A DNA stretch of 64,000 nucleotides, taken from Myxococcota bacterium (lineage in GTDB: Bacteria; Myxococcota_A; UBA9160; SZUA-336). This document shows positions 1-15,317 of the stretch, one piece after another (the stretch's first letter is position 1; each line of letters begins with the position of its first letter). The position numbers and the translations under genes were made by a program. The DNA lies in NCBI GenBank assembly GCA_965247115.1, contig CBDFGR010000002.1, positions 128,001-192,000 on the forward strand, given 5' to 3'. The notes below the pieces were generated by a model, which saw only the letters and a list, made by a program, of their open reading frames with translations, did no database searches and was not told the origin of the DNA.

Positions 1-357
1 TCCGAGATCGATACGCTCCCCGAATTCGCGTTCGACGCCGTGGTCGCGGGGTTTAGCCTCTCCGAGATGTCCACTGCCGAGCGGGGCTTTGTGCTGCGCG
101 AGGCTGCAAAGCGCCTCGCTCCGGACGGCGTGCTGGTAATCGCCGACGAAGTGCTGCCGCAGCGGGCCGCGGCTCGTCTCCTCTACCGCCTGCTCCGTTT
201 CCCGCAGGCCGCGCTCGGATGGTTGCTCGCGGGCTCACTCTCACGTCCGCTCACGCACCTCTCGAGCGAGATCTCGGATGCCGGCTTCGAAGCGCCACGC
301 GAGAGGCGCTGGCTTCTCGGGAGCCTCGGGCTGTTCGTCGCGCGGAGGCGGGAGTGA
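1..357 (+). CDS. Class I SAM-dependent methyltransferase, C-terminal part (5' truncated by window edge)
   Basis: Frame open from base 1 (SEIDTLPEFAFDAVVAGFSLSEM...LREAAKRLAPDGVLVIADE), typical post-motif-I methyltransferase elements; TGA overlaps GTG of next gene (GTGA 354-357). Confidence 0.75.
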   Translation, partial: SEIDTLPEFAFDAVVAGFSLSEMSTAERGFVLREAAKRLAPDGVLVIADEVLPQRAAARLLYRLLRFPQAALGWLLAGSLSRPLTHLSSEISDAGFEAPRERRWLLGSLGLFVARRRE

Positions 358-1475
358 TCTCGCTCGGGGACCTTGCCGCCGAAGTCGTGCAGACCGCGTT
401 GCGGCTTCTGCCCTGGCCAACCGAGCCAGGTCTGCGACGCGCGGGCAACCCGGGTCCTTCGAGTCCCGTCCTGATCACAGGGAACTTCGACCTGACTGTG
501 CGCCGCCTGATGCGGGCGCTGGAGGGCGTCGACGCCTGGGTTGTCGTCGCCTCGTCGGGCGGCATCAACGTCTGGTGCGCAGCGGCCGGCGGCCACCTCG
601 GCACACATCAGGTCGTGAGCGCGCTCAAGACGAGCGGGATCGAAGAGCACGTCTCGCACCATCGCGCGATCCTTCCTCAGCTCGCGGCGACGGGCGTGGT
701 TGCACGCGAGGTGTCGCGCCGCTGCGGCTGGCGAGTGCGCTTCGGACCCGTCCGCGCCGAGGACATCCCGGAGTATCTCGACGCGAAGGCAAAGAAAGTC
801 GACTCGATGCGGCGCGTGCGCTTCGGCGTCCGCGAGCGGCTCGAGATGGCCTGCACCTTGGGTGTGGCTCCATCCATCGTGGTGGGTGCAGTGAGCCTGT
901 TCTTCGCGCCGGGGTGGGCCTTGGCGCTCGGCCTCTGGCCGTGGCTCCTGGCTTGCGGTGTGTTCCTCTTCTACGACCGGGTGCGCGGTCCACGCCGGTG
1001 GGTCTTCACGGCCGTAGCGCTTCTGCTCGCGCTCGTCGGAGTCGCGATCGCAGGAGGCGGACCGATCGCTCTCGTGAGCGTCGGCGTCCTGACTGCGGGA
1101 CTCGTGCAGGTCCTGACGTTCGACTACGCGGGCAGCACCCCCCTCGAGGGCGGCAGCCACTTCGAGAGCCGCGATTGGAGCATCTCGCTCGATCTCGAGC
1201 GTTGCGCCGGGGTCTACTCGTGCTGGGAGGTGTGCCCGGAAGCCTGCTTCGAAAAGCGAGAGGACGTGCGCAAAGTCGACCTCTTACACGACGAGCGCTG
1301 TGTACGCTGCGGCGCCTGTGTCGTCCAGTGTCCGCAGGACGCGCTCTTTTTCGAAGCGGAAGACGGGCGCCGCATCGAGCCCGACACCATTCGGCGTTTC
1401 AAGCTCAATCTTCTGGGGTCGCGCTCGGTGGAGGTCAGCGACCCTTCGGAACGCGGGCCAGAGCGCTCCCCGTAG
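354..1475 (+). CDS. HgcAB-like fusion: CdhD/HgcA-type corrinoid-binding domain + transmembrane helices + C-terminal ferredoxin
   Basis: PVLITGNFDLTV, GINVWCAAAGG cap-helix-like motif, LPQLAATGV, FGPVRAED; hydrophobic segment; CAGVYSCWEVCP and CVRCGACVVQCP Fe-S motifs. Confidence 0.85.
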   Translation: MISLGDLAAEVVQTALRLLPWPTEPGLRRAGNPGPSSPVLITGNFDLTVRRLMRALEGVDAWVVVASSGGINVWCAAAGGHLGTHQVVSALKTSGIEEHVSHHRAILPQLAATGVVAREVSRRCGWRVRFGPVRAEDIPEYLDAKAKKVDSMRRVRFGVRERLEMACTLGVAPSIVVGAVSLFFAPGWALALGLWPWLLACGVFLFYDRVRGPRRWVFTAVALLLALVGVAIAGGGPIALVSVGVLTAGLVQVLTFDYAGSTPLEGGSHFESRDWSISLDLERCAGVYSCWEVCPEACFEKREDVRKVDLLHDERCVRCGACVVQCPQDALFFEAEDGRRIEPDTIRRFKLNLLGSRSVEVSDPSERGPERSP

Positions 1476-1504
1476 CGACTTGACGTAACGCCCGCACGAG
1501 AAAC

Positions 1505-1555
1505 CTGGAGCGCGAGACCGGACTCGAACCGGCGACAACCACGTTGGCAACGTGG
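1505..1555 (-). repeat. att site: copy of tRNA-Gly 3' end (distal island boundary)
   Basis: Matches 14003-14053 with one mismatch (position 1512). Confidence 0.92.
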
Positions 1556-1687
1556 GCGGATACCTTGAAAACGCTCACGAATCCCGCAGAAGCGTACCGA
1601 GGGATACTAGATAACCCGGAATGGGTGTGCAGAATGGGCGAAAGGTATCAGCCAGTCACGCCAAAGACCCCGGCAACCGCTCTCTTT

Positions 1688-1885
1688 CTATCTGACTGAC
1701 TTGTCAGCCGCTCGGAACGCGGTGGCCTTTCTCTCCTCGACGTCGCCCTCGTCGTCCGCGAACATCTGCGCGAAGGTCGAGTTGAACACCTCCATCCACC
1801 TGCGCTGCTGCGCTTCCGTCAGGCGCTGCTGCACGGACTCGGGGGGGTCGGAGATGCGGCTGAACAGCCCCGTAACCTTTGGCAT
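1688..1885 (-). CDS. ChaB-family small protein
   Basis: MPKVTGLFSRISDPPESVQQRLTEAQQRRWMEVFNSTFAQ...ATAFRAADKSVR resembles the ChaB pattern (DLPxSV...AQ..Y..AFNS...A...AW.AV). Confidence 0.65.
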   Translation of the reverse strand: MPKVTGLFSRISDPPESVQQRLTEAQQRRWMEVFNSTFAQMFADDEGDVEERKATAFRAADKSVR

Positions 1886-1899
1886 CCCGGTCTCAGGGC
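1775..1899. repeat. 125-bp direct repeat copy 1 (5' part of ChaB-like gene)
   Basis: Identical to 3595-3719 except 3 positions (1845/3665, 1878/3698, 1895/3715). Confidence 0.95.
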
Positions 1900-1970
1900 A
1901 AAGGGCCTGGGAGCGCGCCGACGTCACACTGACCGCATCGCGGGTGGGGTAGAGGGTTCGTCAGAGGACC

Positions 1971-2246
1971 CTACTCCCGAAGACCCCTGTTCAGGAGGAG
2001 CTTTTCGAACGCCGCCAGCCAGCACTCGTAGTAGGTCGGTGGCTGCGAGCCCTCGGACCGTGCGATCTCGGCGATCAGATGGTCGCGGAACTCGTCCCAC
2101 TCGTACAGCCCTTGCTCGGACAGCGAGACGGCCATCGCGAACAGGCGTCGTTGCCAGCGATCGTGGAAGACGAGTTCGCCGTTGGCGCGGGGTAGCGCAG
2201 CTTCGCCGTCCATGTTCGCGACGCCCGGGTCGGTAGGGCGGTCCAC
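1971..2246 (-). CDS. Nitrile hydratase accessory/activator protein (P14K/NhlE-like)
   Basis: LPRANGELVF..WQRRLFAMAV.L...GLYEWDEFRDHLI...YYECWLAAFEKLL, directly downstream of the alpha subunit. Confidence 0.88.
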   Translation of the reverse strand: MDRPTDPGVANMDGEAALPRANGELVFHDRWQRRLFAMAVSLSEQGLYEWDEFRDHLIAEIARSEGSQPPTYYECWLAAFEKLLLNRGLRE

Positions 2247-2891
2247 CTAAGCACCTCCCGCAGTCACCATCACCTTGCTCACGCCGATCATCGAGTCGCG
2301 CGTGACCAGCGCCGCGAGCTCCTCCTCGCTCATCTGCTCCGTCCCGCTCGGCCGTTCCGGAAGCACCAGGTACCGGATCTCTGCGCTGCTGTCCCAGACG
2401 CGGACCTCGACGGACTCGTCAAGCTCGAGCCCGAACTCCGCGAGCACGCCGCGTGGGTCGATCACGACTCGAGATCGATACGGCGCGCTCTTGTACCAGT
2501 TGGGCGGAAGCCCAAGGACCGGCCACGGGTAGCACGAGCATAGGGTACACACCACGACGTTGTGAACCGTGGGCGCGTTCTCGACGACGACCATGTGCTC
2601 GCCTTGCAGGCCACCGAAGCCGAGCTCCGCGATGGCGGCCGTGGCGCCCGCGAGCAGTCGATCCTTGTAGGCGAGGTCGACCCACGCCCGCGCGACGACC
2701 TTGGCGCCATTCATGGGTCCTATGTCGGTCTCGTACAGCTCGGCCAGCCGATCGAGCGCGGCGGGCGAGACGAGCCCCTTCGCGACGAGCAGCGCCTCTA
2801 GCTTGCTCACCCGCTCTTCGAGAACCTGCAGCTGTTCCGGCGAGAGCGTGTTCTCGAGCCGCGAATCGGGTCCGTCGTCGTGCGCGCTCAT
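2247..2891 (-). CDS. nthA: Nitrile hydratase alpha subunit, cobalt type
   Basis: [23 protein letters not shown] metal-binding motif (CTLCSC = Co type); [19 protein letters not shown]. Confidence 0.96.
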
Positions 2892-3568
2892 GGCCCTTCC
2901 TCAGTCCCGGACGCCGGCTCGAGGTAATCCTCCCAGAGGTCGAGGAACAGGTAGTCCGCCGCGGCGGTGCCGGGTCCCCAGAGCCCGCGTGCAGCAAAGC
3001 GGACAGAGTAGAGCGGCTGCGGCTGCTCTCCTTCGCCGTGCGCATTCGTGTCGGGATAGACGAACGTCCCGTGGACGCGAGCGATCACCCCACGCTTCCC
3101 GCGCGCATAGCGCGGAAGACGCGTGTGTCCGAACGGATGGATGTTGCGCGCCATCACGAGGTCGCCCACAGCGAAGCGCGGCGTGAGCCTGCCCGTGCTT
3201 CGTTCGAATGGAGCACCTCCCCGAACGACGGCTTCAGCCTGCTCCGGAGGCGCCGGGGTACTCGCGGGCTCACCCGTAGCCTCCGCCACTCCGGTGGCAA
3301 GCTCCTCCGCCAAGACAATCCCATGCTCGACGGCCAGGGTCTCCAGGCCGGCCAGCCAGTGCTCGTAGTACGTCGATGACAGGTAGTGGATCGGGTCCAT
3401 CCGCTCGAGCGAGTGGCGTACGGCGTCGAGCGTATCGATCTGGCCCATCCACGAGTTGAGCAGACCAAAGACACGTCGCTCCCAGGCGGCGTGGAAGACC
3501 GGCTCGTCTTCCTCCCGCTCGATCGCCCCGAAACACGTCATGCCGCCCATGTCGTGGACGCCGTTCAT
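2888..3568 (-). CDS. nthB: Nitrile hydratase beta subunit
   Basis: [10 protein letters not shown]...FHAAWERR...YYEHWL...[14 protein letters not shown]...YSVRF...LWEDYL; ATGA overlap with nthA. Confidence 0.96.
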
Positions 3569-3705
3569 CGCCGGGAGAGTTTATCAGTGCGCGGGGTCGA
3601 GTTGAACACCTCCATCCACCTGCGCTGCTGCGCTTCCGTCAGGCGCTGCTGCACGGACTCGGGGAGGTCGGAGATGCGGCTGAACAGCCCCGTAACCCTT
3701 GGCAT
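3565..3705 (-). pseudogene. Truncated ChaB-like copy whose stop overlaps the nthB start
   Basis: MPRVTGLFSRISDLPESVQQRLTEAQQRRWMEVFNST then diverges (PRTDKLSRR*); TGA overlaps nthB ATG. Confidence 0.6.
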
Positions 3706-3719
3706 CCCGGTCTCGGGGC
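3595..3719. repeat. 125-bp direct repeat copy 2
   Basis: 122/125 identical to 1775-1899; offset 1820 bp. Confidence 0.95.
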
Positions 3720-3839
3720 TCCAGACGAATCTGTCACGAGTCGACATAGTCGATGATCGCAGATCTGTTCAGATCTCGGTTGGAGCGACGGACGTCGACT
3801 TCAAACCGGTAGCGGAGAACTCCCCGCGACACCCGCAGC

Positions 3840-5245
3840 GGTGACGTCCGGGGTTTGCTGGAAACAAAGGGGGGATGCAACCTCGCGTGAATCAAACAAA
3901 ACCCGCCGGACCTTCCGGCCACGCGAGGAGACATCCCCTTGGCAACGAGAGTACTGAGCAGCGAGAGGACGAGCCAGAAGATCCGTGAGCTGATCCAGGA
4001 GCTGGAGGAAGGAGACGGCCTGGAGGGGCTGCTCCAGCTCGCGATGCGCAAGATCATCGAGGAGGCGCTGGAAGCCGAGGTCAGCGATGTCCTGGGCCGA
4101 GGCCACTACGCGCGGCGACGCGAGGGGCAAAAGGGCTACCGCAATGGATCGCGACCGGCGCGGGTGAAGAGCGCCGAAGGTCCGATCGAGTACCGGGCTC
4201 CGCAGGTGAGCGACACCGACGAACCCTTCCGTTCCGGGATCCGTCCCGAACTCGAGAAGCGGACGCGCGCCCTGGAAGAGCTGGCGGTGGAGATGTACGC
4301 GAGAGGACTCTCGACCCGCGACATCGAGGCCACCTTTCGAGGCGAGGACGGACGGTCCTTGCTTTCGCGGACAGCCGTGAGTGAGGTCACGGAGCAGCTC
4401 TGGGAAGAGTACGAGGCCTTTGCGACCCGGGACCTCTCCGAGTTCAAGCTCCTGTACCTGTTCGTGGATGGCGTCGCCGAGCGCCTGCACACCGGTCAGC
4501 GTCGCGAGATGGTGCTGTGTGCCTGGGGCATCACCGACGAGGGCGAGAAGGTTCTCCTGCACCTGAGTCCGGGCACGAAGGAGGACACGGCGAGTTGCAC
4601 GGCCTTCTTCCAGGACCTCAAACGTCGCGGCCTCGAGGATCCGCTCCTCGTCGTCACGGATGGAGCCCCCGGTCTGATCCGCGCGGTCGAGGAGTGCTTT
4701 CCCCGGGCGGAGCGACAACGCTGTTTGGCCCATCGGATGCGCAACCTCGCCTCCAAGATCTCCGAGCCCGACTGGCCGGAGTTTCGCGCCCACGCCAAGG
4801 CCTGTTACGAGGGACCCTCGCAAGAGGTCGCTCGTCTCCTGCGCGACGACCTGGTCCGACGCTACGAGAAGACGTTACCTACGGCCGTGCAGTGCTTCAT
4901 GGATGATTTTGAAGCCTGCATCGCCCACTTGCGCTTCCCGGTAAAACACCGTCGCGTGATTCGGACGACGAACTTACTCGAGCGCCTCTTCCTCGAAGAG
5001 CGCCGTCGCATGAAGGCGGTCGTACACGCCTTCGGAGAGCGTGCGGTCTTGAAGCTGATGTATGCTGCGTTGATCCGGAGCGCCGAGTCCTGGCGGGGCA
5101 TCGCGATCAGCGCCTTTGAAGCCCGACAGCTCTCTGTGATTCGGGAAGAGCTTGACCAGAACCACGAACGCCGTCAGGCTCCCGCCATCCCGTCACGCGA
5201 AGCCAATCCCCGGTCCCGCGTTTCCAGCAAGAACCGGACGTGACC
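3840..5245 (+). mobile_element. IS256-family insertion sequence (1406 bp)
   Basis: 26-bp imperfect terminal IRs (3840-3865 / 5220-5245, 22/26 match); 8-bp target duplication cccgcagc at 3832-3839 and 5246-5253. Confidence 0.93.
3939..5243 (+). CDS. IS256-family (Mutator) DDE transposase
   Basis: YRNG, MYARGLSTRDI, YLFVDG, VVTDGAPGL, QRCLAHRMRN, IRTTNLLER motifs. Confidence 0.95.
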   Translation: MATRVLSSERTSQKIRELIQELEEGDGLEGLLQLAMRKIIEEALEAEVSDVLGRGHYARRREGQKGYRNGSRPARVKSAEGPIEYRAPQVSDTDEPFRSGIRPELEKRTRALEELAVEMYARGLSTRDIEATFRGEDGRSLLSRTAVSEVTEQLWEEYEAFATRDLSEFKLLYLFVDGVAERLHTGQRREMVLCAWGITDEGEKVLLHLSPGTKEDTASCTAFFQDLKRRGLEDPLLVVTDGAPGLIRAVEECFPRAERQRCLAHRMRNLASKISEPDWPEFRAHAKACYEGPSQEVARLLRDDLVRRYEKTLPTAVQCFMDDFEACIAHLRFPVKHRRVIRTTNLLERLFLEERRRMKAVVHAFGERAVLKLMYAALIRSAESWRGIAISAFEARQLSVIREELDQNHERRQAPAIPSREANPRSRVSSKNRT

Positions 5246-5352
5246 CCCGCAGCTGCCGGGCTACCGCCGCCAGGGGTCTCCCCTGGGCCACAGCCCCAAG
5301 GTCCGCTACTTCGACGCGCTCTACGGAGATCGTCACTACCGGGGATCACCAG

Positions 5353-5562
5353 CGCCGCCAGGTCGGCCACACCACCGTCCGCACGATCACCGAGGTCTAC
5401 GACTCCTTTATCGACGCCGCCCGTTGGCCCGACGAAGAGGAGCGCCGCACCGTTGCCGAACTCTACGGCTGGGGCGTCAGCTCTGAAGATGGAGTGGAAA
5501 TCTGGAGTGCCCCCCGTGTAAACCCTGGTGCGCCCGGACAGCATACGACCCTGAAGGGCTGA
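5353..5562 (+). pseudogene. C-terminal remnant of a tyrosine integrase
   Basis: QVGHTTVRTITEVYDSFIDAARWPDEEERRTVAELYGWG aligns with TLGHANPRMILEKYDAFLGPESWPEADEVAMLRQIYGWG of the 12666-13961 integrase; same position relative to att. Confidence 0.8.
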
Positions 5563-5578
5563 CTTCGTAGATCGTGCG

Positions 5579-5591
5579 CAACTGGTTGATT
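5579..5591 (-). promoter_or_regulatory. Putative IHF site beside att core
   Basis: Minus strand AATCAACCAGTTG fits WATCAANNNNTTR, 15 bp from the att copy at 5607. Confidence 0.45.
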
Positions 5592-5606
5592 CAGTGCACG
5601 AATCGT

Positions 5607-5655
5607 TGGAGCACGAGACCGGACTCGAACCGGCGACAACCACGTTGGCAATGTG
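5607..5655 (-). repeat. att site: copy of tRNA-Gly 3' end (junction between the two islands)
   Basis: 5607-5651 identical to 14004-14048; extends to 5655 with one mismatch. Confidence 0.93.
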
Positions 5656-5712
5656 ATGCCGACCCGCGTAAGTGCACGGGAAGCCCGGAGCTGCGGCCTC
5701 ACCTGACCCAGG

Positions 5713-5752
5713 GGGTGCCACATGGGTGCCCCGGGGCTCCCACGTGGCACCC
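5713..5752. repeat. Putative integrase arm-type sites (inverted pair)
   Basis: gggtgccacatggg (5713-5726) / cccacgtggcaccc (5739-5752); same motif gggctcccatgtggcaccc at 13919-13937. Confidence 0.65.
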
Positions 5753-5836
5753 ACCCCGATGAGAGCGCTGCGCCGAACACGCACGGTCGGCGGTTGGTAC
5801 ACCCGTCGATCGGGCCGATTCCCCACAGGAGAAACC

Positions 5837-5965
5837 ATGAGCCCCCGCACCCGCAAGCGCGTTGGGAGCGGCGTCTGCCCCTGCTGTAGCCGGACCTTTC
5901 AGCAGCTCGCCCGGCACATGAAGGCGAAGCATCCCGCCTACACGGAAGTGACGGGCGGGTCTTAG
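5837..5965 (+). CDS. Small C2H2 zinc-finger-like phage protein
   Basis: AGGAG RBS; GVCPCCSRTFQQLARHMKAKHP. Confidence 0.6.
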   Translation: MSPRTRKRVGSGVCPCCSRTFQQLARHMKAKHPAYTEVTGGS

Positions 5966-5972
5966 ACCCCGA

Positions 5973-6966
5973 GTGCTGGTCCGTGGCGACGCTCGAGCGA
6001 TTCCTCTGGCCGACCAGGTGGCCGACTGCGTCGTGACCAGCCCTCCGTACTGGGGCCTGCGGACCTACGAGCTCGACGGCCAGATCGGCCTCGAGGAGAC
6101 GCCCGCTGAGTACCTCGAGGAGCTCCTGGCCGTGTTCCGGGAGGTACACCGCGTCCTGAAGCCAGAGGGGACGCTCTGGCTCAACCTGGGCGACTGCTAC
6201 GTCTCTGCCCCGAGCAGCGGCCACGGCTGGGACAAGAGCACGCTGACGCTGCCGAAGAGCCGCGAGCGCAAGATCCAGCACGCGCAGAGGGCCTCGCGGC
6301 TCAAGGGCCGGAAGTTCGAGGGCCTCAAGCCAAAGGACATGGTCGGGATGCCCTGGACGGTCGCGCTCGCGCTGCGCAACGAGGGCTGGTATCTGCGGCG
6401 GGACATCATCTGGCACAAGCTATCGCCAATGCCCGAGGCAGTGAAAGATCGCCCAACGTCTGCGCACGAGTACCTGTTCCTGCTGGCCAAGTCTCGCCGC
6501 TACTACTACGACGCAGAGGCGATCAAAAGAGCCAACCGTCACCGCCAGCCGTGTGTCTCCCCGCCCGGTCAACCCAAAGGCCAAGGTTCCAGCTGGTTGG
6601 GACACGCGATCAGGTTCCCACCGTCACCTCACAGGGCGCTATCCGGGCCCAAAGCAGAACGCCGGAACTGCCGCGCGCATCGCCAACTCTGTCGAGACTC
6701 GAAGTGCGCGCACTGTCTGGAGCCTGGCCACAGAGCCCTACCACGGCGCGCACATGGCCGTCTTCCCCACCGAGCTCGCGAAGCGCTGCATCCTCGCGGG
6801 CTGTCCGGCCGGCGGGCTTGTGTTCGATCCATTCGTCGGATCGGGGACGACTGTGAAGGTCGCGATCGAGCTCGGCCGCCGAGGCCTCGGGATGGACCTC
6901 AAGCACGACTACCTGCACGACCAGGCGCGGGAGCGGATCAAGACAACGGTGGGGATGGGGTGGTGA
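5973..6966 (+). pseudogene. Phage-type N4/N6 DNA methyltransferase with +1 frameshift at 6525-6528
   Basis: TSPPYWGLR in first frame, HMAVFPTEL...DPFVGSGTT in second; removing one A from AAAA restores YDAEAIKEP. Confidence 0.8.
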
Positions 6967-7000
6967 CGGTCATCCATCCCGGCGTTCCTGAGGAGGGAAA

Positions 7001-7324
7001 GTGAAGCGAACCTTGCTCGCCCTCGTGCTCGTCGCGTGCGGTCCGGATCTGCCAGAGCTTCCGGAGCCAGCACCCAAGAAGTTTGAGCTTACCAACGAGC
7101 GAAAGTGCGTCGCGATCCAGATGTGCGGGCGCCTCTGTGAGAAACGTAAGGGCATGGAGATGCTGGAGTTCCGTGGTGACATCGGCATCTCCTGGGCGTG
7201 TCACTGCAACGGCTACGGGCTGTTCCACTTCAAGGACCCCGAGCACATCATCTTTCCCGATGGCCTGACTGTCGCTGACTGTGCGCCGACGGGTGCCCAC
7301 AGCGTGGGTCAGGAGGAGAAGTGA
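7001..7324 (+). CDS. Hypothetical Cys-rich lipoprotein
   Basis: MKRTLLALVLVAC lipobox-like signal; GGAGG RBS. Confidence 0.55.
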   Translation: MKRTLLALVLVACGPDLPELPEPAPKKFELTNERKCVAIQMCGRLCEKRKGMEMLEFRGDIGISWACHCNGYGLFHFKDPEHIIFPDGLTVADCAPTGAHSVGQEEK

Positions 7325-7668
7325 TGACAGATCAGGAGCCCACACCGGAAGAGGCGCAATTGCAGACGGGCAGCCAACCCGGGCAGTCAATCGGACATTC
7401 CATGACGACGAACGGCGACCCCAACGATCTACGCTACGAACGCGAGACACGGCTGCTCTCCCGAGAGGAACTGGCCGAGCGGGCTGGTGTCCACTGGTCC
7501 ACCGTCCGCGCCATCGAGCGCGGCTGGCATCGACCCCAGCTCCGCACCCGCCGATGGATCTTGGGGGCACTCGACATCCCTGTCGAAGAGCATCGGCGTG
7601 TCTGCGGACCTACGCGAAGCGATGGTCCAATGACGGGCATCCATCCCGCTTGTCGAGACAATGGCTGA
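7321..7668 (+). CDS. XRE/Cro-type helix-turn-helix protein
   Basis: LRYERETRLLSREELAERAGVHWSTVRAIERGWHRPQ. Confidence 0.75.
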   Translation: MMTDQEPTPEEAQLQTGSQPGQSIGHSMTTNGDPNDLRYERETRLLSREELAERAGVHWSTVRAIERGWHRPQLRTRRWILGALDIPVEEHRRVCGPTRSDGPMTGIHPACRDNG

Positions 7669-8053
7669 TCTCCGCGAGGTCATGCGGTGGATGGCGGGTA
7701 GGGATACGGGCATGTCGTCGATGGCGCTCGCTCGATACATGGCCGGGATTGATCCCGACCGTGAGGACCCCGACGCCTGCGCCTACCCTCTTGATCCCGA
7801 CGACTTGGGCCGGTGCCTGCGACTCCTCGAGAGGTTCCCAGAGTGGAAGGAACGGCTACCCGAGATGGAGGCGCTTGATCCAGTCTGGGGCGCCTTGGCG
7901 GAGCACTGGTACGAACTCGCTGCTCTCTACCACGAGGAGGCTCGATTCCGGATGGCTCCCAAGTGCTACAAGCGAATGAGGGAGCTGATCGATCCGCTCC
8001 GGTACGTTCGACCGACGTTCATCCATCCCGTCAGTCAAGAAGGCGAACGATGA
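7661..8053 (+). CDS. Phage-associated hypothetical protein
   Basis: DTGMSS...YPLDPDDLGRCLRLLERFPEWKERL; overlaps neighbours in operon fashion. Confidence 0.6.
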   Translation: MADLREVMRWMAGRDTGMSSMALARYMAGIDPDREDPDACAYPLDPDDLGRCLRLLERFPEWKERLPEMEALDPVWGALAEHWYELAALYHEEARFRMAPKCYKRMRELIDPLRYVRPTFIHPVSQEGER

Positions 8054-9006
8054 ACGAGCCGCTCAATGTCTATGACCCGGTTCGGGAGAAATCTGGAAGC
8101 CTCGAAAGTCTGCTTGAGGCCAACCAGAGACATCGGGATAGCCAGTGGCCGGAGCCGTTCGATAAGACGACACACACGCTCCACCTGGGCGACGCGAGAA
8201 AGCTGGATCAGATAGAAGCGGGCTCCATACATCTGATTGTCACATCCCCGCCATACTGGACGTTGAAAAAGTATCCCGCTGCCAAAGACCAGCTTGGCGA
8301 TATAGAAGATTACGAGCAGTTTCTGGTGTCTCTAGATCGCGTATGGCGCGAGTGTGAGCGCGTGTTGGTGCCAGGTGGGAGGATCTGCTGCGTGGTCGGC
8401 GACGTGTGTATGTCGAGGAAAAAGAACGGGAAACACTACGTCGTGCCGTTACATGCGGATATTCAGGTCCGATCCCGCGCGCTGGGTCTGGACTGTCTTA
8501 CGCCGATCTTCTGGCACAAGATCTCTAACGGCCTCCAAGAGGCGAGCGGAAACGGGGCGCGCTACTACGGAAAGCCGTACCAGCCCGGCGGCGTGATTAA
8601 GAATGATGTGGAATACATTCTGTTCTTCAGGAAGGGAGCAGGTTACCGCTCGCCGTCCGCCGAGCAACAGGCACTCTCGATGCTGACCAAAGCGGAGGTT
8701 CGGAGCTGGTTCAAGTCGGCGTGGACGGACATTAAAGGGGCTTCGACGCGGAACGGACACCCGGCGCCCTATCCCACGGAAGTTGCTGAGCGCCTGATCC
8801 GCATGTTTTCGTTCGCTGGGGATACTGTACTAGACCCATTTGTCGGGACCTGTTCAACCCTGATCGCTGCGATGCACATGGGCCGGAATTCCATAGGAAT
8901 CGAGATTGAGCCAGCTTACCTTGAACTTGCCAAATACCGTCTTGAAGGTGAACTCGAAACACATCGCTTCAACGTAAACACCACAGCCTTGCTGATCGGA
9001 CCGTAG
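8050..9006 (+). CDS. Site-specific N4/N6 DNA methyltransferase (beta class), orphan
   Basis: VTSPPYW, HPAPYPTEVAERLIRMFS..GDTVLDPFVGT; ATGA overlap; visibly more AT-rich than host genes. Confidence 0.9.
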   Translation: MNEPLNVYDPVREKSGSLESLLEANQRHRDSQWPEPFDKTTHTLHLGDARKLDQIEAGSIHLIVTSPPYWTLKKYPAAKDQLGDIEDYEQFLVSLDRVWRECERVLVPGGRICCVVGDVCMSRKKNGKHYVVPLHADIQVRSRALGLDCLTPIFWHKISNGLQEASGNGARYYGKPYQPGGVIKNDVEYILFFRKGAGYRSPSAEQQALSMLTKAEVRSWFKSAWTDIKGASTRNGHPAPYPTEVAERLIRMFSFAGDTVLDPFVGTCSTLIAAMHMGRNSIGIEIEPAYLELAKYRLEGELETHRFNVNTTALLIGP

Positions 9007-9104
9007 TGACCTCGCAAACCGTCGGAGACGAAGCGCTGGCGGCTCGGGCGTGGAAAGTTTCAGGGATAATTCCCAAACAGAAGTAATGACGGGCAGCCAA
9101 TCCC

Positions 9105-9144
9105 TTGACATATACCGAAATAGATATATCATTCTCGGCATATG
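9105..9144 (+). promoter_or_regulatory. Sigma70 promoter with overlapping inverted-repeat operator for the TA operon
   Basis: TTGACA 9105-9110, 16-bp spacer, TATCAT 9127-9132; catataccga 9109-9118 / tcggcatatg 9135-9144. Confidence 0.7.
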
Positions 9145-9498
9145 GCAGAGGACAAGCCGATTGCTTGGCTCGCCGCAGAATGGCAGACACCGCCGATGAG
9201 TCAGGAAGCTCGCCTATGGGCAGGGTTCCTGCTCCGGCAACTGCAGCAAGGCGAGTCGCTCTCGATGCCCCACTCTCGGCCGATGCCCGCGATCGGGCGG
9301 AGGGTGCATGAGCTTCGAATCAAGGACGAAAAGGCGAAGGCGACATGGCGAATTCTCTACCGAATCGACGCCGACCGGATCGTGGTGATCCAGTGGTTCG
9401 ACAAGGATACGAAGCGGACCCCCAAGGGCGTCATCGAAACAACCAAACAGCGCCTCGCGCGCTATGACGAAGCAAAGAGGAGAGGCAGCACACGGTAG
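9142..9498 (+). CDS. RelE/HigB-like type II toxin (Gp49-like)
   Basis: PHSRPMPAIGRRVHELRIKD...WRILYRIDADRIVVIQWFDKDTKRTP. Confidence 0.88.
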   Translation: MAEDKPIAWLAAEWQTPPMSQEARLWAGFLLRQLQQGESLSMPHSRPMPAIGRRVHELRIKDEKAKATWRILYRIDADRIVVIQWFDKDTKRTPKGVIETTKQRLARYDEAKRRGSTR

Positions 9499-9582
9499 GT
9501 CGACTGAGACCCGCGATGGACTGAAGGTCCCCCCCAACGGATCCAGGTCCAGCCCCCCCCCAACTCAGGAAGAAGCCCACCC

Positions 9583-9891
9583 ATGAAGAAGAAGGAACTG
9601 GAGGCCCTTGAGGCCGACGGCTGGCAGATCGGGACGGTTCAGGAACTCCTGGATCTCTCGGACAGCGAGATGGCATTCATCGAGATGAAGGTCGCCCTCG
9701 CAAAGGCAGTGAAGGAGAAGAGAGCCAAAGGACGAGTGAGCCAGACGCAGCTTGCAGCTCGAATGGGATCGAGCCAGCCACGTGTAGCGAAACTGGAGAA
9801 GGGAGAAGCAACGATTGATCTGCTCGTGCGTGCGCTCCTTGCGATGGGAGCATCTCCGACGCAGATCGGTCGAAAAATCGGAGCAGGCTGA
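9583..9891 (+). CDS. HigA-like XRE HTH antitoxin
   Basis: LEADGWQIGTVQELLDL...SQTQLAARMGSSQPRVAKLEKG; downstream of toxin. Confidence 0.85.
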   Translation: MKKKELEALEADGWQIGTVQELLDLSDSEMAFIEMKVALAKAVKEKRAKGRVSQTQLAARMGSSQPRVAKLEKGEATIDLLVRALLAMGASPTQIGRKIGAG

Positions 9892-9982
9892 AGTCGAAGT
9901 GACCCCAGATCTTAGATGTCGGACCCAGACCGTAGGGTAAGCGGACGGACTTGACAGCGAATTCTTCGGAGAGGAGCGAAGA

Positions 9983-10234
9983 GTGGTGAGCGAAGAAGAC
10001 GACTTGCGAGCCGAGGTCGAACGGTTGCGAGCCAAGGTTGCGGAGATCGATAGGAAAAAGAAGGCTCGGATCCAACTGAAGGTCAGCCAGAAAGGGGCTC
10101 TGTCGCTCTACGGGCTCCGCCGATTCCCGGTCACACTCTACGCGGACGAGTGGGAGGAGGTTCTCGAAAGGAGCGATGAGATCCGCAGCTTCATCGCGGA
10201 GCATCCCGCCGAGCTCAAGCGGAAGGAAGAATGA
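9983..10234 (+). CDS. Small conserved-looking hypothetical protein
   Basis: GAGGAG RBS; coiled-coil N-terminus then LKVSQKGALSLYGLRRFPVTLYADEW. Confidence 0.7.
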   Translation: MVSEEDDLRAEVERLRAKVAEIDRKKKARIQLKVSQKGALSLYGLRRFPVTLYADEWEEVLERSDEIRSFIAEHPAELKRKEE

Positions 10235-10270
10235 GCCGCCCTCTCAGCCCGTGCCGCTCGCCGATCGCCT

Positions 10271-10399
10271 ATGACTCCTGGTGAGTTCATCGCCAAGTGG
10301 CGAGCGTCGGAGCTGAAGGAGCGCTCGGCCTCCCAGGAACACTTCATCGACCTATGCCGGCTCCTGGACGAGCCGACGCCGGTCGAGGCCGATCCGACA
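10271..10399 (+). pseudogene. N-terminal fragment of MmeI-like (type IIL/IIG) restriction-modification enzyme
   Basis: MTPGEFIAKWRASELKERSASQEHFIDLCRLLDEPTPVEADPT, after which similarity stops abruptly. Confidence 0.7.
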
Positions 10400-10713
10400 T
10401 CAGCAAGCTCAAGCAACACATCAAGGACGAGGAGCAGACGGCTCTCCTCAAAGCCCATGGCAAAATCGAGACGCGGAAGCGCTTCAAGCACTCTTCCGGG
10501 AACCAGTTGCTAGAGGGCCGGCCGTCGAATCGACTGTATTTCGACGAGTCCGGGAGTCCGAACGCATCCGATCATCCGAACGACCAGCCGTTCTTCGCGT
10601 TGGGTGCCATCGCGATCTCTGCCGAGGAGGAGCTCGCCTACAGGAAGCGCGCAGATGAGATCAAGATGGAGTTTCTTGGCAAGAGCTCCGTGACGTTCCA
10701 CGAGCCCAAGATG
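10400..10713 (+). pseudogene. DUF3800-family protein, N-terminal half
   Basis: LYFDESG...PFFALGAIAI...IKMEFLG...TFHEPKM. Confidence 0.75.
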
Positions 10714-10747
10714 TCATTTCGTATATTCCAATTAGGAGGGCGGTTAA

Positions 10748-11280
10748 GTGAATATCCACGCTACGCTGTCATCACTTTTGCTCGCAATGCTCACCGTGCT
10801 CAACCCACATGCGGTGGCCGCCGCCTGCGTCGAAGACAGTGCCGAGGTGGTGGTTCGCGTCTATCGCTTCAGTGAAGGCCCGCCCGCGTACGCCTTCATG
10901 GTGATCAACAACGCGAGTGCTCCAATCCGTACCCTTAGCATTGGATGGGGCACGGAGCCGTCTCTGCCTATCAATGCGGAGAACATCCCGACGAGCGTGG
11001 GTTCTCCAACGGGCTGGGAGGGGAACTATTTCTTCTCGGACAATCACCCGAGTGAGTACATGCAATACCTCTGGGAAGCCAAAGATTCGGAGAGAAGAAT
11101 TTCGCCTGGGGCGTCTCTTTCCGGATTTTCGGTACAACTACCCTACCCAAAAGCACGGAACAGCGATGGCTCTTCGGCCCACGAGGGCGTCCAGTCATAC
11201 GGGCCGATCTGCGGGATGTTCCATTTGAAGTCCTCCTAACCGGCGGCATATGTTATGCCGGTTTCATGTCGGTGGACTAA
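10748..11280 (+). CDS. Putative secreted protein (probable frameshift near 11190; ORF track ends it at 11239)
   Basis: Signal peptide MNIHATLSSLLLAMLTVLNPHAVAA; AGGAGG RBS; alternative frame continues ADLRDVPFEVLLTGGICYAGFMSVD* to 11280. Confidence 0.55.
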
Positions 11281-11306
11281 AGCGCCCACACGGGCGAAGC
11301 ACCTGA

Positions 11307-11729
11307 TTGGCTCAAGCAATGCTCCCTGTTTGTTGGTGTGCGTACATGGTTGCGCTCGCGGCTGTGCTAGTCGTCGGGTTAGGAATCTGGACGCAGTTCC
11401 ACATATCGCTGAGGTCTTTGGGGCCTGACACGCTCGTTTTCTTGTCCTTGTTTGTGTTTCTCGGAATCCCGATATTCGGGGCAACGACCTGGTTATCGAG
11501 GCGCGTACTACTAGTTGCTAATCATTTCTCTTCGGTTGTACCCCTGTATGTTTTTATGGCCGGAATGTTGTTGATGATCGCGGCCCGTCCTCCGCAGGGT
11601 GTTGGCCTTGAAGGCGGTGACATCGCTGCCCGTGTGTCAGTATTTGTAGCGGTGGTCGGGATCATCGTTGACCTTGTGCTAGGGAAAACTCTCGCGAAGG
11701 GATCGGATACCCAGGACCCGTTGCGCTGA
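11307..11729 (+). CDS. Hypothetical membrane protein (~4 TM helices)
   Basis: Four hydrophobic stretches; T-rich coding; start uncertain. Confidence 0.6.
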   Translation: MAQAMLPVCWCAYMVALAAVLVVGLGIWTQFHISLRSLGPDTLVFLSLFVFLGIPIFGATTWLSRRVLLVANHFSSVVPLYVFMAGMLLMIAARPPQGVGLEGGDIAARVSVFVAVVGIIVDLVLGKTLAKGSDTQDPLR

Positions 11730-11781
11730 GCCGCTACGCCAGGCTCAAGCCGAGATCAAGGTGGTGAAGCCGCATCGCTTA

Positions 11782-12201
11782 CCCAAGATGAGGATACGCG
11801 ACGGGATCTTCTCCTTCGACGGTGATACAGCTAAGCAGGCGGCATTCGACCGCGAGGTCGACCGGCTTGTCGGCGGGACGAATTTCGTCGCGTTCGGTGC
11901 CGGCATCCGGAAGGACGCGTTTCAGGAAGACTTTGTCGCAACGAAGATCAATCCGTACCTACCGACTGATGTGTACGCTGTCGCGATCCAGATGGTGCTC
12001 GAGCGCTACGTCGACTACCTGGCTGTGGCCACCCGAGAAAAGCCGAGAGGCCGGCTGACGTTCGAAGCACAGGGTCCTCGAGAGGACGCTGAGCACCTCA
12101 TGCACTACGCGATGACGCTGCTCGGGGGTACACAGTGGGTCCCCGAATCGGCGTTTCAGGCGAAGCTGGAGACTCGGGTCGAGTTCGTGCCCAAGCATTG
12201 A
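11782..12201 (+). pseudogene. DUF3800-family protein, C-terminal half (itself truncated)
   Basis: PKMRIRDGIFSF...VYAVAIQMVLER...LTFEAQGPRED...VEFVPKH*; the expected terminal (Q/E)xAD motif is absent. Confidence 0.7.
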
Positions 12202-12230
12202 GGCGCATCGAGACTCGGTGCCTGGAGACT

Positions 12231-12298
12231 AAAAGCGCCGGACCCCAAGGGAGTCCGGCGCCGATAGCGGGGGGGGGCGCTTCTTCTTTGTCCGCTTC
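12231..12298 (+). ncRNA. Candidate DUF3800-associated structured RNA
   Basis: 9-bp hairpin 12235-12243/12253-12261, further complementarity agcgg 12266-12270/ccgct 12292-12296 and aagcgcc/ggcgctt; immediately 3' of a DUF3800 gene. Confidence 0.5.
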
Positions 12299-12665
12299 GC
12301 CATGCTTAGCGCCAAGGATAGAGAAATGCTCGCTCCCACCTTTGCTCTAGCGGCGCGAGATCGCCAAGAAGGGCGCGGCGGCTCGCTGGGGCAAGCGTAA
12401 GGAATAATCCGAGGAATATTCCTCTTGACTTTGGGTCGCTCTCTGGCGGAACGGTAGCGTCCTAATTTGAGTGGCTACCTTTACGGATTCTGGAGCCACT
12501 TGGCATTCACGGAGACGCTCTCCACTTGCTCTACGGTCTCCGAGCAGAGGGTCTTGGACGCGATTCGACGGGCGCTGCGTGAGCAGGAAGAGCCGCAGTC
12601 GACCGAGGAACGGGCCAAGACACTGATCGAGAGAAGTGCCCAGAAGAAGCGAGCGGTGAGGTAGG

Positions 12666-13961
12666 ATGCAGTCTGAGGAGTGGGGGGTGCCCAAGGCACG
12701 ACTCTGGACGGATGACCGGGGACGGCTGAACGTCGTCGGCCAAGGCGTCCTCATGCGGGCTGGAACACGGGTCAGACGCAAGCGCCGCATGATCGTCCCC
12801 AAGGGGGATCCCGAGCTCGGCGCCGAGATCGTCAGGCAGCTCAACGTCCAGTTCGCGATGGGCGACGCCTCCTGGCTGGAGGGCCAAACGGATCCGGAAC
12901 CCAAACCGGTTCGACCGAGCACGCTGTCGGAGTGGGCGCCGCTGTGGCTGCAATCGTGCGCGCCTCCCGTGATCGGGCAGCGCACCTGGTACAACTACAG
13001 TATCCACGTGCGCGACCTGGTCGAGCGCCTCGGACAGAGATCGCTCGGCTCGATCGACACGGCCGAGGTCCTGCACCTCCGGAGCGCGCTTGAGTCGTCG
13101 AGGGGCAAGCGCGGGGCGCCACTCTCGCGTACTACCGTCAAGGACCGTCTCGGTGTGCTGGCCATGATGCTGCGTGACGCGAGGATCGAGGGCCTGATCG
13201 CCACGAACCCTCTCGCGGATCCCCTACCCCGTCGACGAACGAAGCGGGGAACCGGAACGCAGCGGGTCCGGCGCGTGCAGTTCCTCCCGTTTGAGGCCAG
13301 CGAGCTCGCTGCGCTTCTTCGAGTACTCGGAGCACCCGCCGCGCCTGTCCAGAAGGTCTACTACCCCCCGACGGAGATGCTGCTCCTCACCGGACTCCGG
13401 TGGGGCGAGGTCGCCGGCGTTCTCTGGGATGACATCTCGTGGAAGGGCCGGCGCGTGAACATCCGACGCGCGGTCGTGCGCGGACAGGACGATCCGACCG
13501 AACCGACGAAAACCGGCGCGCAGTGGGAGATCGAACTTCGCGCTCCGCTCGAGCATCTGCTCCAAACGCAGCGAACGCGAAGCTATCTCGGCCGCGTCGA
13601 TGGTCGCGTGTTCCCGGGGCGTCGTGGCTCCGTGATGAGCTACCACGAATGGCGGAAGCGCGGGTGGATCCCAGCGCTCCGCGCAGCCAAGGTCTCCCCG
13701 CGTGAGGGCGACGCGCAGAAGGCGCTGCGCAAGTCATACGTCACAGCGGCCCTCATCTGCGGCGAGAACGCGAAGCGGATCTCAGAGACACTCGGCCACG
13801 CGAACCCGCGCATGATCCTCGAGAAGTACGACGCCTTCCTCGGCCCAGAGTCATGGCCTGAGGCCGACGAGGTTGCGATGCTGAGGCAGATCTACGGGTG
13901 GGGAAACGTCCGACCCGAGGGCTCCCATGTGGCACCCCGAGGATCCCATCGTCGGAGCTGA
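12666..13961 (+). CDS. Tyrosine recombinase / phage integrase
   Basis: LLTGLRWGE (R), TKTG (K), KALRKSY (HxxR position), LGH, EKY (Y); ends 42 bp from the tRNA 3' end. Confidence 0.92.
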   Translation: MQSEEWGVPKARLWTDDRGRLNVVGQGVLMRAGTRVRRKRRMIVPKGDPELGAEIVRQLNVQFAMGDASWLEGQTDPEPKPVRPSTLSEWAPLWLQSCAPPVIGQRTWYNYSIHVRDLVERLGQRSLGSIDTAEVLHLRSALESSRGKRGAPLSRTTVKDRLGVLAMMLRDARIEGLIATNPLADPLPRRRTKRGTGTQRVRRVQFLPFEASELAALLRVLGAPAAPVQKVYYPPTEMLLLTGLRWGEVAGVLWDDISWKGRRVNIRRAVVRGQDDPTEPTKTGAQWEIELRAPLEHLLQTQRTRSYLGRVDGRVFPGRRGSVMSYHEWRKRGWIPALRAAKVSPREGDAQKALRKSYVTAALICGENAKRISETLGHANPRMILEKYDAFLGPESWPEADEVAMLRQIYGWGNVRPEGSHVAPRGSHRRS

Positions 13962-14003
13962 AACTCGCAACGAGCGCTAACTACGCGGATAACAATGGAA
14001 AAC

Positions 14004-14079
14004 TGGAGCACGAGACCGGACTCGAACCGGCGACAACCACGTTGGCAACGTGGAGCTCTACCAACTGAGCTACTCGTGC
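14004..14079 (-). tRNA. tRNA-Gly (GCC)
   Basis: GCACGAGTAGCTCAGTTGGTAGAGCTCCACGTTGCCAACGTGGTTGTCGCCGGTTCGAGTCCGGTCTCGTGCTCCA, 76 nt, encoded CCA, follows pgsA. Confidence 0.97.
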
Positions 14080-14113
14080 GTGAGGAGTGTTATGCGGCGC
14101 GTCTGAGGCGGCG

Positions 14114-14734
14114 TCAAGGGGTCGCTGGGGGTGCTCCCCGGCGACTCAGGTACCCGACGAAATAGGCGTACCCCGACCAGAGCGTGAGGCCCGTCGCGAG
14201 CACCAGCAGGAGCACTCCGATCGCGTGGGTGGGCAGCCCGAGGACCGGGTAATGCAACAGCAGCACCGTCAGCGCGGCGATCTGGAAGCCCGTCTTCCAC
14301 TTCCCCAGCGGGGCCGCGGGCAACAGCACACCCTCAGCAGAGGCCATCGCTCGCAGCCCAGTGACGGCGATCTCCCGGCCCAGGATTACGACGGCCATGA
14401 TGACGCCCAACTCGTTCAGGCGTTCCGGCACCGCGACTAGAACGACCAGCGCGGTCATGACCAGGATCTTGTCTGCCAGCGGATCGAGCAGCTTGCCGAT
14501 CCTGGTCTCCGCGCCGCGACGCCGCGCGACGTAGCCATCGAGCAGGTCCGTCAGCGACACGCCGAGGAAGCCCAGGCCCACCAGCGCAGACCACCACGGC
14601 CCCTGCCACCACAGGTTCAGCAGCAGGAGCGGGGTCGCCGCAATCCTGGAGAGCGTGATCAGGTTGGGCGCGTTCCAGATCTTCTCGATGGGCACAGACC
14701 CACTCAGCCCCGTGGTTTCAGCGGAAGTCTGCAT
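14114..14734 (-). CDS. pgsA: CDP-diacylglycerol--glycerol-3-phosphate 3-phosphatidyltransferase
   Basis: PNLITLSR, TDLLDGYVARR...GKLLDPLADK, GKWKT; start may be a few codons downstream. Confidence 0.93.
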   Translation of the reverse strand: MQTSAETTGLSGSVPIEKIWNAPNLITLSRIAATPLLLLNLWWQGPWWSALVGLGFLGVSLTDLLDGYVARRRGAETRIGKLLDPLADKILVMTALVVLVAVPERLNELGVIMAVVILGREIAVTGLRAMASAEGVLLPAAPLGKWKTGFQIAALTVLLLHYPVLGLPTHAIGVLLLVLATGLTLWSGYAYFVGYLSRRGAPPATP

Positions 14735-15317
14735 GATATCGCTTGTAGAGATTCATGACTCGCTTCACGTAGGTCCGGGTCTCCGGGTACGGCGGAATCC
14801 CCTTGTAGCGCCGCACCGGCTCCACTCCCGCATTGTAAGCCGCCAGTGCCAGCTGCGGCTCCCCAGGAAAGAGCTCGAGCATGGCGCTCAGGTACCGCGT
14901 GCCTCCATCTATGTTCTGCCACGGGTTGAACGGATCGTCCACCCCCAATGACCGAGACGTGCGGGGCATGAGCTGCATCAGTCCCTTCGCGCCCTTGCGG
15001 GAGACGGCGCGAGGATCGAAGGCGGACTCCGCGTGGATTACGGCCTTGACCAGAGCCGGAGAGACGCTCTGCTCTCGGGCCATTCGGGAGATCAGTCCAT
15101 CCCAGGCCCGCGTCGGGACGAAGGCACGCCGGGGCCGTGGCATGGGCCGGACGGGCCTCAGCTCGTGGGGCGTGAACCCGGCGTGACGCGGGTGGTCGCT
15201 GAAGTGAATCGAGCCGTCCGGATCGGTCCAGCTGTACACCTGGGCCTGCGAGGCAACCGGCAGTGCCAGAGCCGCCAGCAGCAGCAGCTTGTCCGCGAAT
15301 CCCAGCCAGCGTGGCAT
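14718..15317 (-). CDS. Lytic transglycosylase (DUF4124 + SLT domain)
   Basis: VYSWTDPDGSIHFSD; AVIHAESAF, GAKGLMQLMP, ALAAYNAG, PPYPETRTYV. Confidence 0.92.
   Translation of the reverse strand: MPRWLGFADKLLLLAALALPVASQAQVYSWTDPDGSIHFSDHPRHAGFTPHELRPVRPMPRPRRAFVPTRAWDGLISRMAREQSVSPALVKAVIHAESAFDPRAVSRKGAKGLMQLMPRTSRSLGVDDPFNPWQNIDGGTRYLSAMLELFPGEPQLALAAYNAGVEPVRRYKGIPPYPETRTYVKRVMNLYKRYHADFR

Follow-up and report, generated by a model that had tools for sequence, protein, structure and literature searches.

A nitrile hydratase operon between 125-bp direct repeats of a chaB-like gene: probable insertion with long target duplication in a decayed tRNA-Gly island

The window analysed here (64,000 nucleotides of a Myxococcota genome) contains, near its left end, the genes nthB and nthA and an accessory gene of nitrile hydratase (NHase). 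The three genes lie between two long direct repeats derived from a small chaB-like gene, inside the remnant of an island bounded by duplicates of a tRNA-Gly end (Table 1).

Table 1. Coordinates of the features at the repeat-flanked locus and around it (positions in the window)
Feature	Coordinates	Strand	Basis or remark
49-bp duplicate of tRNA-Gly(GCC) 3′ end, distal att remnant of island B	1506..1554	-	
chaB-like gene, 3′ half and 3′ flank	1635..1774	-	Empty-allele homology stops at 1635; 8 differences in 140 nt
Predicted ChaB-fold ORF, 65 aa from ATG 1885	1688..1885	-	Regenerated by downstream repeat copy; Pfam, PDB, model
Direct repeat copy 1 (duplicated target)	1775..1899	.	Repeat search and comparison with empty allele
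Last 16 codons and stop of TPR-protein gene, ragged left cargo end	1900..1952	+	
Nitrile hydratase accessory protein	1971..2246	-	TIGR03889, above cut-off
nthA, Co-type nitrile hydratase alpha subunit (predicted)	2247..2891	-	NCBIfam, above cut-off; motif
nthB, nitrile hydratase beta subunit	2888..3568	-	NCBIfam, above cut-off
Original chaB-like ORF, insertion-truncated	3565..3747	-	Stop overlaps nthB start
Right junction, 26 bp upstream of nthB	3569..3594	.	6-nt match to target beside repeat (8 nt in other strains)
Direct repeat copy 2	3595..3719	.	Repeat search and comparison with empty allele
Serine resolvase/invertase gene 3′ end, left of IS	3748..3839	-	Comparison with empty allele
IS256-family element	3840..5245	+	8-bp target duplication 3832-3839 / 5246-5253
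Resolvase remnant right of IS	5246..5288	-	Empty-allele homology stops at 5288
C-terminal remnant of tRNA-Gly-targeting tyrosine integrase	5289..5562	+	
Second 49-bp tRNA-Gly 3′ duplicate, island B / island A boundary	5607..5655	-	
Intact integrase of neighbouring island A	12666..13961	+	
Intact tRNA-Gly(GCC), integration target	14004..14079	-	

All three NHase genes exceed their NCBIfam cut-offs (TIGR03888, TIGR01323 and TIGR03889). The alpha subunit carries the motif VCTLCSCY, and its best PDB matches are Co-type. On this basis, nthB–nthA–accessory is predicted to be an intact Co-type nitrile hydratase operon, as the first-pass annotation had proposed. That annotation had also reported that the island lacks an amidase, a cobalt transporter and a regulator, and this was borne out: no amidase match was found in positions 1–15000 of the window, and the ORFs listed for 1555–5606 include neither a transporter nor a regulator. 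The missing neighbour amidase is not distinctive, because just 3 of 80 related NHase loci have one close by and 18 amidase-family matches are present elsewhere in the genome; the operon does not require one at its side. A search of the genome with the cobalt transporter families NicO and CbiM gave no match to either, and no sigma-70 site was detected upstream of nthB in a promoter scan. The gene order beta–alpha–accessory is that of the closest loci from Binatia and marine Pseudomonadota. In a quick tree of nthA (112 rows, 5 dropped as too short or broken), the gene groups with these loci (SH-aLRT 93, unstarred) and stands apart from all included class members and from a paralogue at C2:221 kb. 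Earlier horizontal entry of the operon into the genus is likely on these sequences and not proven. The genome encodes a second NHase operon (C2:220984-222508), which is vertically shared with the same-genus genome G002, exhibits 62% alpha identity and is likewise without a neighbouring amidase.

The repeat codes for the N-terminal two thirds of a small ChaB-like protein. Profile scores of the ORF, the suggested Pfam check among them, fall below the family cut-offs (20.6 bits against 27 for PF06150; 20 against 120 for NCBIfam ChaB), which sets it apart from the ChaB family. The best PDB match by sequence is E. coli ChaB, 1SG7 (E 0.06), which is also the top Foldseek match (prob 1.00, TM 0.71, E 0.12) of a single-sequence model with a pLDDT of 80.8; these matches bear out the earlier description of the repeat as the 5′ part of a ChaB-like ORF. 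Atlas look-alikes of the ORF point to ChaB as well (0.84; a lead only). The modelled structure thus indicates a ChaB fold despite the sub-cut-off scores. The likeness to E. coli ChaB (1SG7, PF06150; PMC514712) comprises a three-helix fold and 34% identity over 58 aligned columns, whereas the gene follows a resolvase in a mobile element instead of standing beside a cation antiporter. It had been described as complete downstream and truncated upstream. The upstream copy is indeed truncated; its counterpart downstream forms a complete ORF only from ATG 1885 onwards and lacks the first 28 nt of the 79-codon ORF found in an empty allele (see below). A natural homologue, P0003, begins at the same methionine. 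This chaB subfamily is rare (4 proteins), and an intact homologue, P0001, is found on 2 other contigs.

A repeat search together with the NCBIfam matches confirmed the claim that 122/125-identical direct repeats, spaced 1820 bp apart, surround nthB, nthA and the accessory gene. The copies differ at 1845/3665, 1878/3698 and 1895/3715, their longest perfect run is 70 bp, and they form the sole long direct repeat in positions 1–12000, the 49-bp tRNA-Gly ends excepted. The genes had been said to lie exactly between the repeats; however, 1900–1952 is the tail of a foreign TPR gene. A near-identical third copy in the genome, and the lack of a short-read contig that covers the whole structure, might suggest an assembly artefact in which the repeat was mis-duplicated from the paralogous element. 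Short-read contigs were compared from 5 of 22 runs (X1, X4, X5, X6 and X8), with 31 letters on each side as the bridging rule. A contig in X6 bridges the left junction (72/78 letters on either side), and contigs in X5 and X8 bridge the right one, with 38 letters inside the repeat. The contigs of X1 and X4 extend just 30 letters into the repeats, one below the rule, and no single contig in the five runs crosses both junctions with at least 31 letters on each side. Because the junctions are bridged separately in runs from other studies, each copy carries private substitutions and the assembly consists of just 3 contigs, the artefact that the first-pass annotation had named as a possible refutation is extremely unlikely.

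The third copy proved to be an empty allele (C2:1274213-1274633), in which a single 125-bp copy and both flanks run without interruption. There, a serine resolvase gene ends in an overlap with the 79-codon chaB-like ORF, and a tyrosine integrase, an excisionase-like gene and RusA are found in the neighbourhood. The left and right halves in the window sum to one such allele plus the 125-bp overlap. Given an uninterrupted single-copy allele in the same genome, the 125-bp repeat is therefore most likely a duplicated target, in agreement with the earlier proposal of a duplication. The uninterrupted copy belongs to a paralogous element elsewhere in the genome, and the orthologous tRNA-Gly site yielded no empty allele. 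The host DNA is a phage-like integrative element, as had been proposed; its integrase tail resembles the tRNA-Gly integrase of relatives. Island B is a decayed integrative element with no full recombinase at the locus. The IS256 element, of which the genome has 5 identical copies, is missing at this site in runs X4 and X5 and is a later insertion.

The cargo is a 1695-bp segment with ragged ends that holds the three NHase genes and the TPR tail and no mobility gene; its GC content is 66.7%, against 65.7% for the genome. Its ends are unique in the genome, and its sole other match is the distant NHase paralogue. The TPR tail encodes a C-terminus that is kept across orthologues. The gene family occurs in 88 of 151 class genomes, and no full orthologue was found in this 98%-complete genome. 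In G002, by contrast, the whole TPR gene is present and is followed by an NHase scar of 160 bp, composed of an accessory-gene tail (87% identity) fused to a piece of nthB of ~54 bp that beat 300 of 300 shuffles. The scar identity falls in the range of its neighbours (79-90%). The TPR region of G002 is syntenic with C3:287-306 kb, where the TPR–NHase block is missing here at ~C3:300850. With the TPR gene and an NHase scar still present in G002, and the syntenic site empty here, the lineage's own chromosome is the most likely source of the cargo; the NHase operon most likely stood at this position in the common ancestor and was moved later. What the donor site has lost exceeds the cargo by ~1.7 kb, so that a simple cut and paste does not account for the transfer. 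Outside the genus, TPR–NHase adjacency was found at none of 30 TPR loci (1.5 kb flanks, a test for which the G002 scar is too short), and a TPR gene stands beside NHase at none of the 80 closest NHase loci, 51 of which exceed 10 kb. A comparison of NHase phylogeny with that of the host had been proposed with vertical inheritance as a refuting outcome; the quick tree separates nthA from the included class members.

The junctions offer a view of how the segment may have been inserted. In X4 and X8, 8 nt at the right junction match the target and one extra base follows them; the left junction is blunt when G002 serves as proxy donor. One microhomology join and one blunt join fit break repair or template switching. 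A Ku gene lies next to LigD in the genome. We consider it probable that the 1695-bp NHase piece was inserted from the genus's own chromosome by one repair-type event, with long target duplication. A target copy would have been broken or stalled and then extended through 125 bp. The extended end would have been joined bluntly to the TPR-tail end of the donor fragment, a join that we propose host Ku and LigD could make, and the other end of the fragment joined 125 bp further back through the match of ~8 nt. The same product could result from an alternative route, in which target and cargo were circularised and integrated by one crossover. No dedicated recombinase would be needed, and chaB would be a bystander, preserved through the downstream copy, in which an ORF is restored from ATG 1885. 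At an earlier stage, the operon would have entered the genus from an NHase clade of Binatia and marine Pseudomonadota and settled beside the TPR gene. Non-homologous end joining (NHEJ) can capture foreign DNA in bacteria (PMC6379672); a duplication is nowhere mentioned in that report, which counts against the proposed route.

The flanks and strain variants bear on a different history, in which a larger island once had two resolvase–chaB elements around the TPR–NHase block and underwent two independent deletions. One deletion would have brought the upstream chaB up against the nthB leader, and the other would have joined the TPR tail to the downstream chaB, so that the 'repeat' would be merely the stretch retained by both truncated copies. 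Two such elements are present in the genome today, and island B contains other fusion points (5288/5289 and 1634/1635). The contigs of X4, X5, X6 and X8 diverge from the window at 1927, so that four runs carry a second allele that departs there; the X5 flank at this point is unrelated sequence, and a contig in X8 ceases to match the repeat after 1857. The flanks have a mosaic appearance in X4, X5 and X6: on the right, X4 and X5 resemble the C2 allele, and on the left, X4, X6 and X8 run into C2-like sequence past 1635. All of these observations are in keeping with deletions. However, the halves complement exactly to one allele plus the overlap, the copies have just 3 differences in 125 positions, fewer than the flanks do between element copies (8 of 140, and 7 plus one indel of 120, ~6-7%, against the empty allele), and a second event in an Smr gene, described below, exhibits the one-step layout in this lineage. 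Two independent deletions are thus unlikely, and a single insertion with target duplication is the reading that we favour.

Measured against the empty allele, the two repeat copies have no derived site in common. This absence, together with the mosaic flanks, indicates that later recombination blurred the history of the duplicated target. No match to the alternative left flank at 1927 turned up in this genome (G000), G001 or G002. The strain variants point to continued recombination; a strain that has the right junction and lacks the left repeat also fits a two-step origin. Between the window and X4, positions 3690-3831 differ at 9 sites plus one gap, and the adjacent NHase sequence at just 7 of ~1300; one of these two strains has had this flank replaced. 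The depth of contigs with the cargo is near that of single-copy neighbours (6.4 versus 7 in X1; 6.1-6.6 versus 5.8 in X4), where contig depth is not copy number. A perfect run of 70 bp should permit RecA-type deletion or amplification. Excision or amplification by ordinary recombination is possible, neither having been observed in the contigs, and the repeats would now allow RecA-type loss or amplification of the cargo. The resulting 1820-bp circle has no origin or integrase, and its junction would be the repeat itself, which assembled contigs can neither phase nor reveal.

The second event was found in an Smr gene (C3:302253-303352), 1.4 kb from the NHase donor site, where a 190-bp duplication of the gene start surrounds a 720-bp cargo of the SnoaL family. 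The same stretch is single-copy in G002, which provides an empty site. Both repeat copies share 24 differences from G002 and have 4 private differences each. The cargo ends in a small repeat element found throughout both genomes, which points to DNA of the same lineage. This element is an ~85-bp dispersed repeat (C2:1081047-1081130 and ~10 other sites, common in G002), of which a 40-bp fragment ends the insert. The comparison with G002 covered 1.27 of 5.8 Mb. Within it, 3 of the 16 clean segments that are extra in this genome had overlaps of at least 49 bp, namely the Smr case and two of tRNA att type, and 0 of the 44 clean segments extra in G002 had such overlaps. A 229-bp overlap at C2:783714 is a tRNA-derived att-type repeat of 81% identity. 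A genome-wide scan returned 65 repeat pairs, 13 of them low-copy. For four other low-copy pairs of this genome, no clean empty site was found in G002 or G001, and for four low-copy pairs in 1.2 Mb of G002 none was found here. Insertion sequences that generate long duplications were considered as a cause and rejected, since none of 19 inspected repeat pairs had a multicopy IS as the whole insert. The genome therefore offers two verified insertion events and not a proven general process. A further locus (C2:2097214-2099194) has a 338-aa ORF flanked by a perfect 99-bp direct repeat; ahead of the second repeat copy stands the reverse complement of the start of the first, a fold-back junction typical of template switching.

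The repeated chaB stretch might alternatively belong to a dedicated cassette system, in which the serine resolvase acts on a res-like site in chaB and moves repeat-bounded circles of cargo. The resolvase gene stands directly upstream of chaB in the empty allele, and a res site is about 125 bp in size. No closely spaced inverted repeat (6-11 nt, arms within 20 nt) was detected inside the 125 bp, however; only a resolvase tail and an integrase tail are left in island B, and the cargo ends in a ragged gene fragment. Searches for a second cargo were also negative. The ChaB protein matched 2 of 32 family genomes, its own and one with a weak match containing stops. PF06150 gave one match in each of 3 of 225 class genomes, at a threshold insensitive enough to miss the genome's own divergent copy. 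Among the 80 closest NHase loci, none had flanking repeats of at least 60 bp around it, and none a chaB, resolvase or TPR gene nearby. Neither a relative nor a ChaB-bracketed cargo was found in viral contigs or in 50,697 phage records, and none of 120 metagenome loci held NHase or chaB, a search in which the 16-nt pattern was too unspecific. Reuse of the site by different cargoes was not found, with low power in so rare a subfamily. Listings of openly accessible literature included no report of a ChaB- or repeat-flanked NHase cassette. A dedicated system is therefore highly improbable. The idea of a ChaB-specific cassette gave way before the lack of a second such cargo, the same layout in the unrelated Smr gene and the ragged chromosomal ends of the cargo: ChaB is incidental to the insertion, and this locus does not establish a ChaB-based cassette system.

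The first-pass annotation knew of no described ChaB-flanked cargo cassette; the layout of the locus is that of an insertion with long target duplication, described by Furuta, Abe & Kobayashi 2010 (PMC2853133) and in PMC3457768, which cites Nobusato et al. 2000. In the accessible parts of these papers, restriction-modification cargo is the screen criterion of the former, the latter extends the term to other DNA, and double-strand breakage is merely suggested as the mechanism (PMC2853133). In the terms of those parts, the insert here is shorter than the 20-kb limit (1695 bp), the direct duplication exceeds 30 bp (125 bp), and a single-copy empty allele with both flanks exists, in a paralogous element. 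Like the described cases, the insert has no mobility gene and has potential for amplification through its repeats. It differs from them, as far as the same parts go, in that the cargo is a metabolic operon and not a restriction-modification system, the target lies within a decayed integrative element and the donor site is traceable in the same genus.

Other known arrangements resemble the locus in part. tRNA-targeted islands and prophage remnants are represented by island B itself, with its 49-bp tRNA-Gly 3′ duplicates and integrase remnant; however, the 125-bp chaB repeat is not an att core, the cargo has no integrase and it is a small accessory ORF that forms the target. Campbell-type insertion-duplication, including the ISCR1 complex class 1 integrons, likewise places cargo between partial target copies, one intact and one truncated, whereas no ISCR, IS end or rolling-circle gene is found at the cargo ends here. 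Unlike a composite transposon, the cargo is bounded by no IS copies or terminal inverted repeats. As a Co-type NHase operon, it passes the NCBIfam cut-offs with all three genes, carries the Co-type motif and has the gene order of the closest Binatia and marine Pseudomonadota loci; none of the 80 closest loci is repeat-flanked or beside a chaB or TPR gene.

The main value of the NHase locus is that its target, its donor scar and its strain variants can all be traced. It adds a non-restriction, metabolic cargo with a donor locus traceable in the same genus, and a second clean event in the same genome together with strain variants, in a host with Ku and LigD. A nitrile-degrading operon can reach an island and become easily lost or amplified without a mobility gene. 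A broader proposal would be that this lineage relocates its own genes without a transposase by recurrent break-repair, combining one-sided copying of 100-200 bp with Ku/LigD joining, and that NHase was thereby loaded onto the tRNA-Gly island as a copy-number-variable module still spreading into new flanks among strains. We regard this proposal as quite doubtful. If it were true, the locus would offer a natural instance in which the still unexplained mechanism of long target duplication can be followed, from the target and the donor scar to the emptied donor site and the second event nearby.

Several features of the surrounding islands were recorded as well. Genes of island A at 5955-9893 (two DNA methyltransferases and neighbours) are 96-99.7% identical at no fewer than 5 other places in the genome and belong to a family of related integrated elements. 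A block of ~14 kb (G002:C29:172188-189898 versus C2:1275418-1289103) is 92-98% identical between the species against a background of ~87%, and adjoins a tRNA-Gly integrase remnant in G002 and the empty chaB element in this genome; its identity and placement therefore mark it as a recently shared island. Two IS256 copies, at C2:773916-775322 and C3:767398-768804, have swapped flanking duplications, which suggests a rearrangement between them. Finally, an ORF at window 354-1475 (+), which has no match in G001 or G002 and lies downstream of a methyltransferase-like ORF that extends to 357, combines a CdhD-like corrinoid domain, a membrane segment and a 4Fe-4S ferredoxin in one frame, and presumably resembles a fused hgcA–hgcB-like protein.
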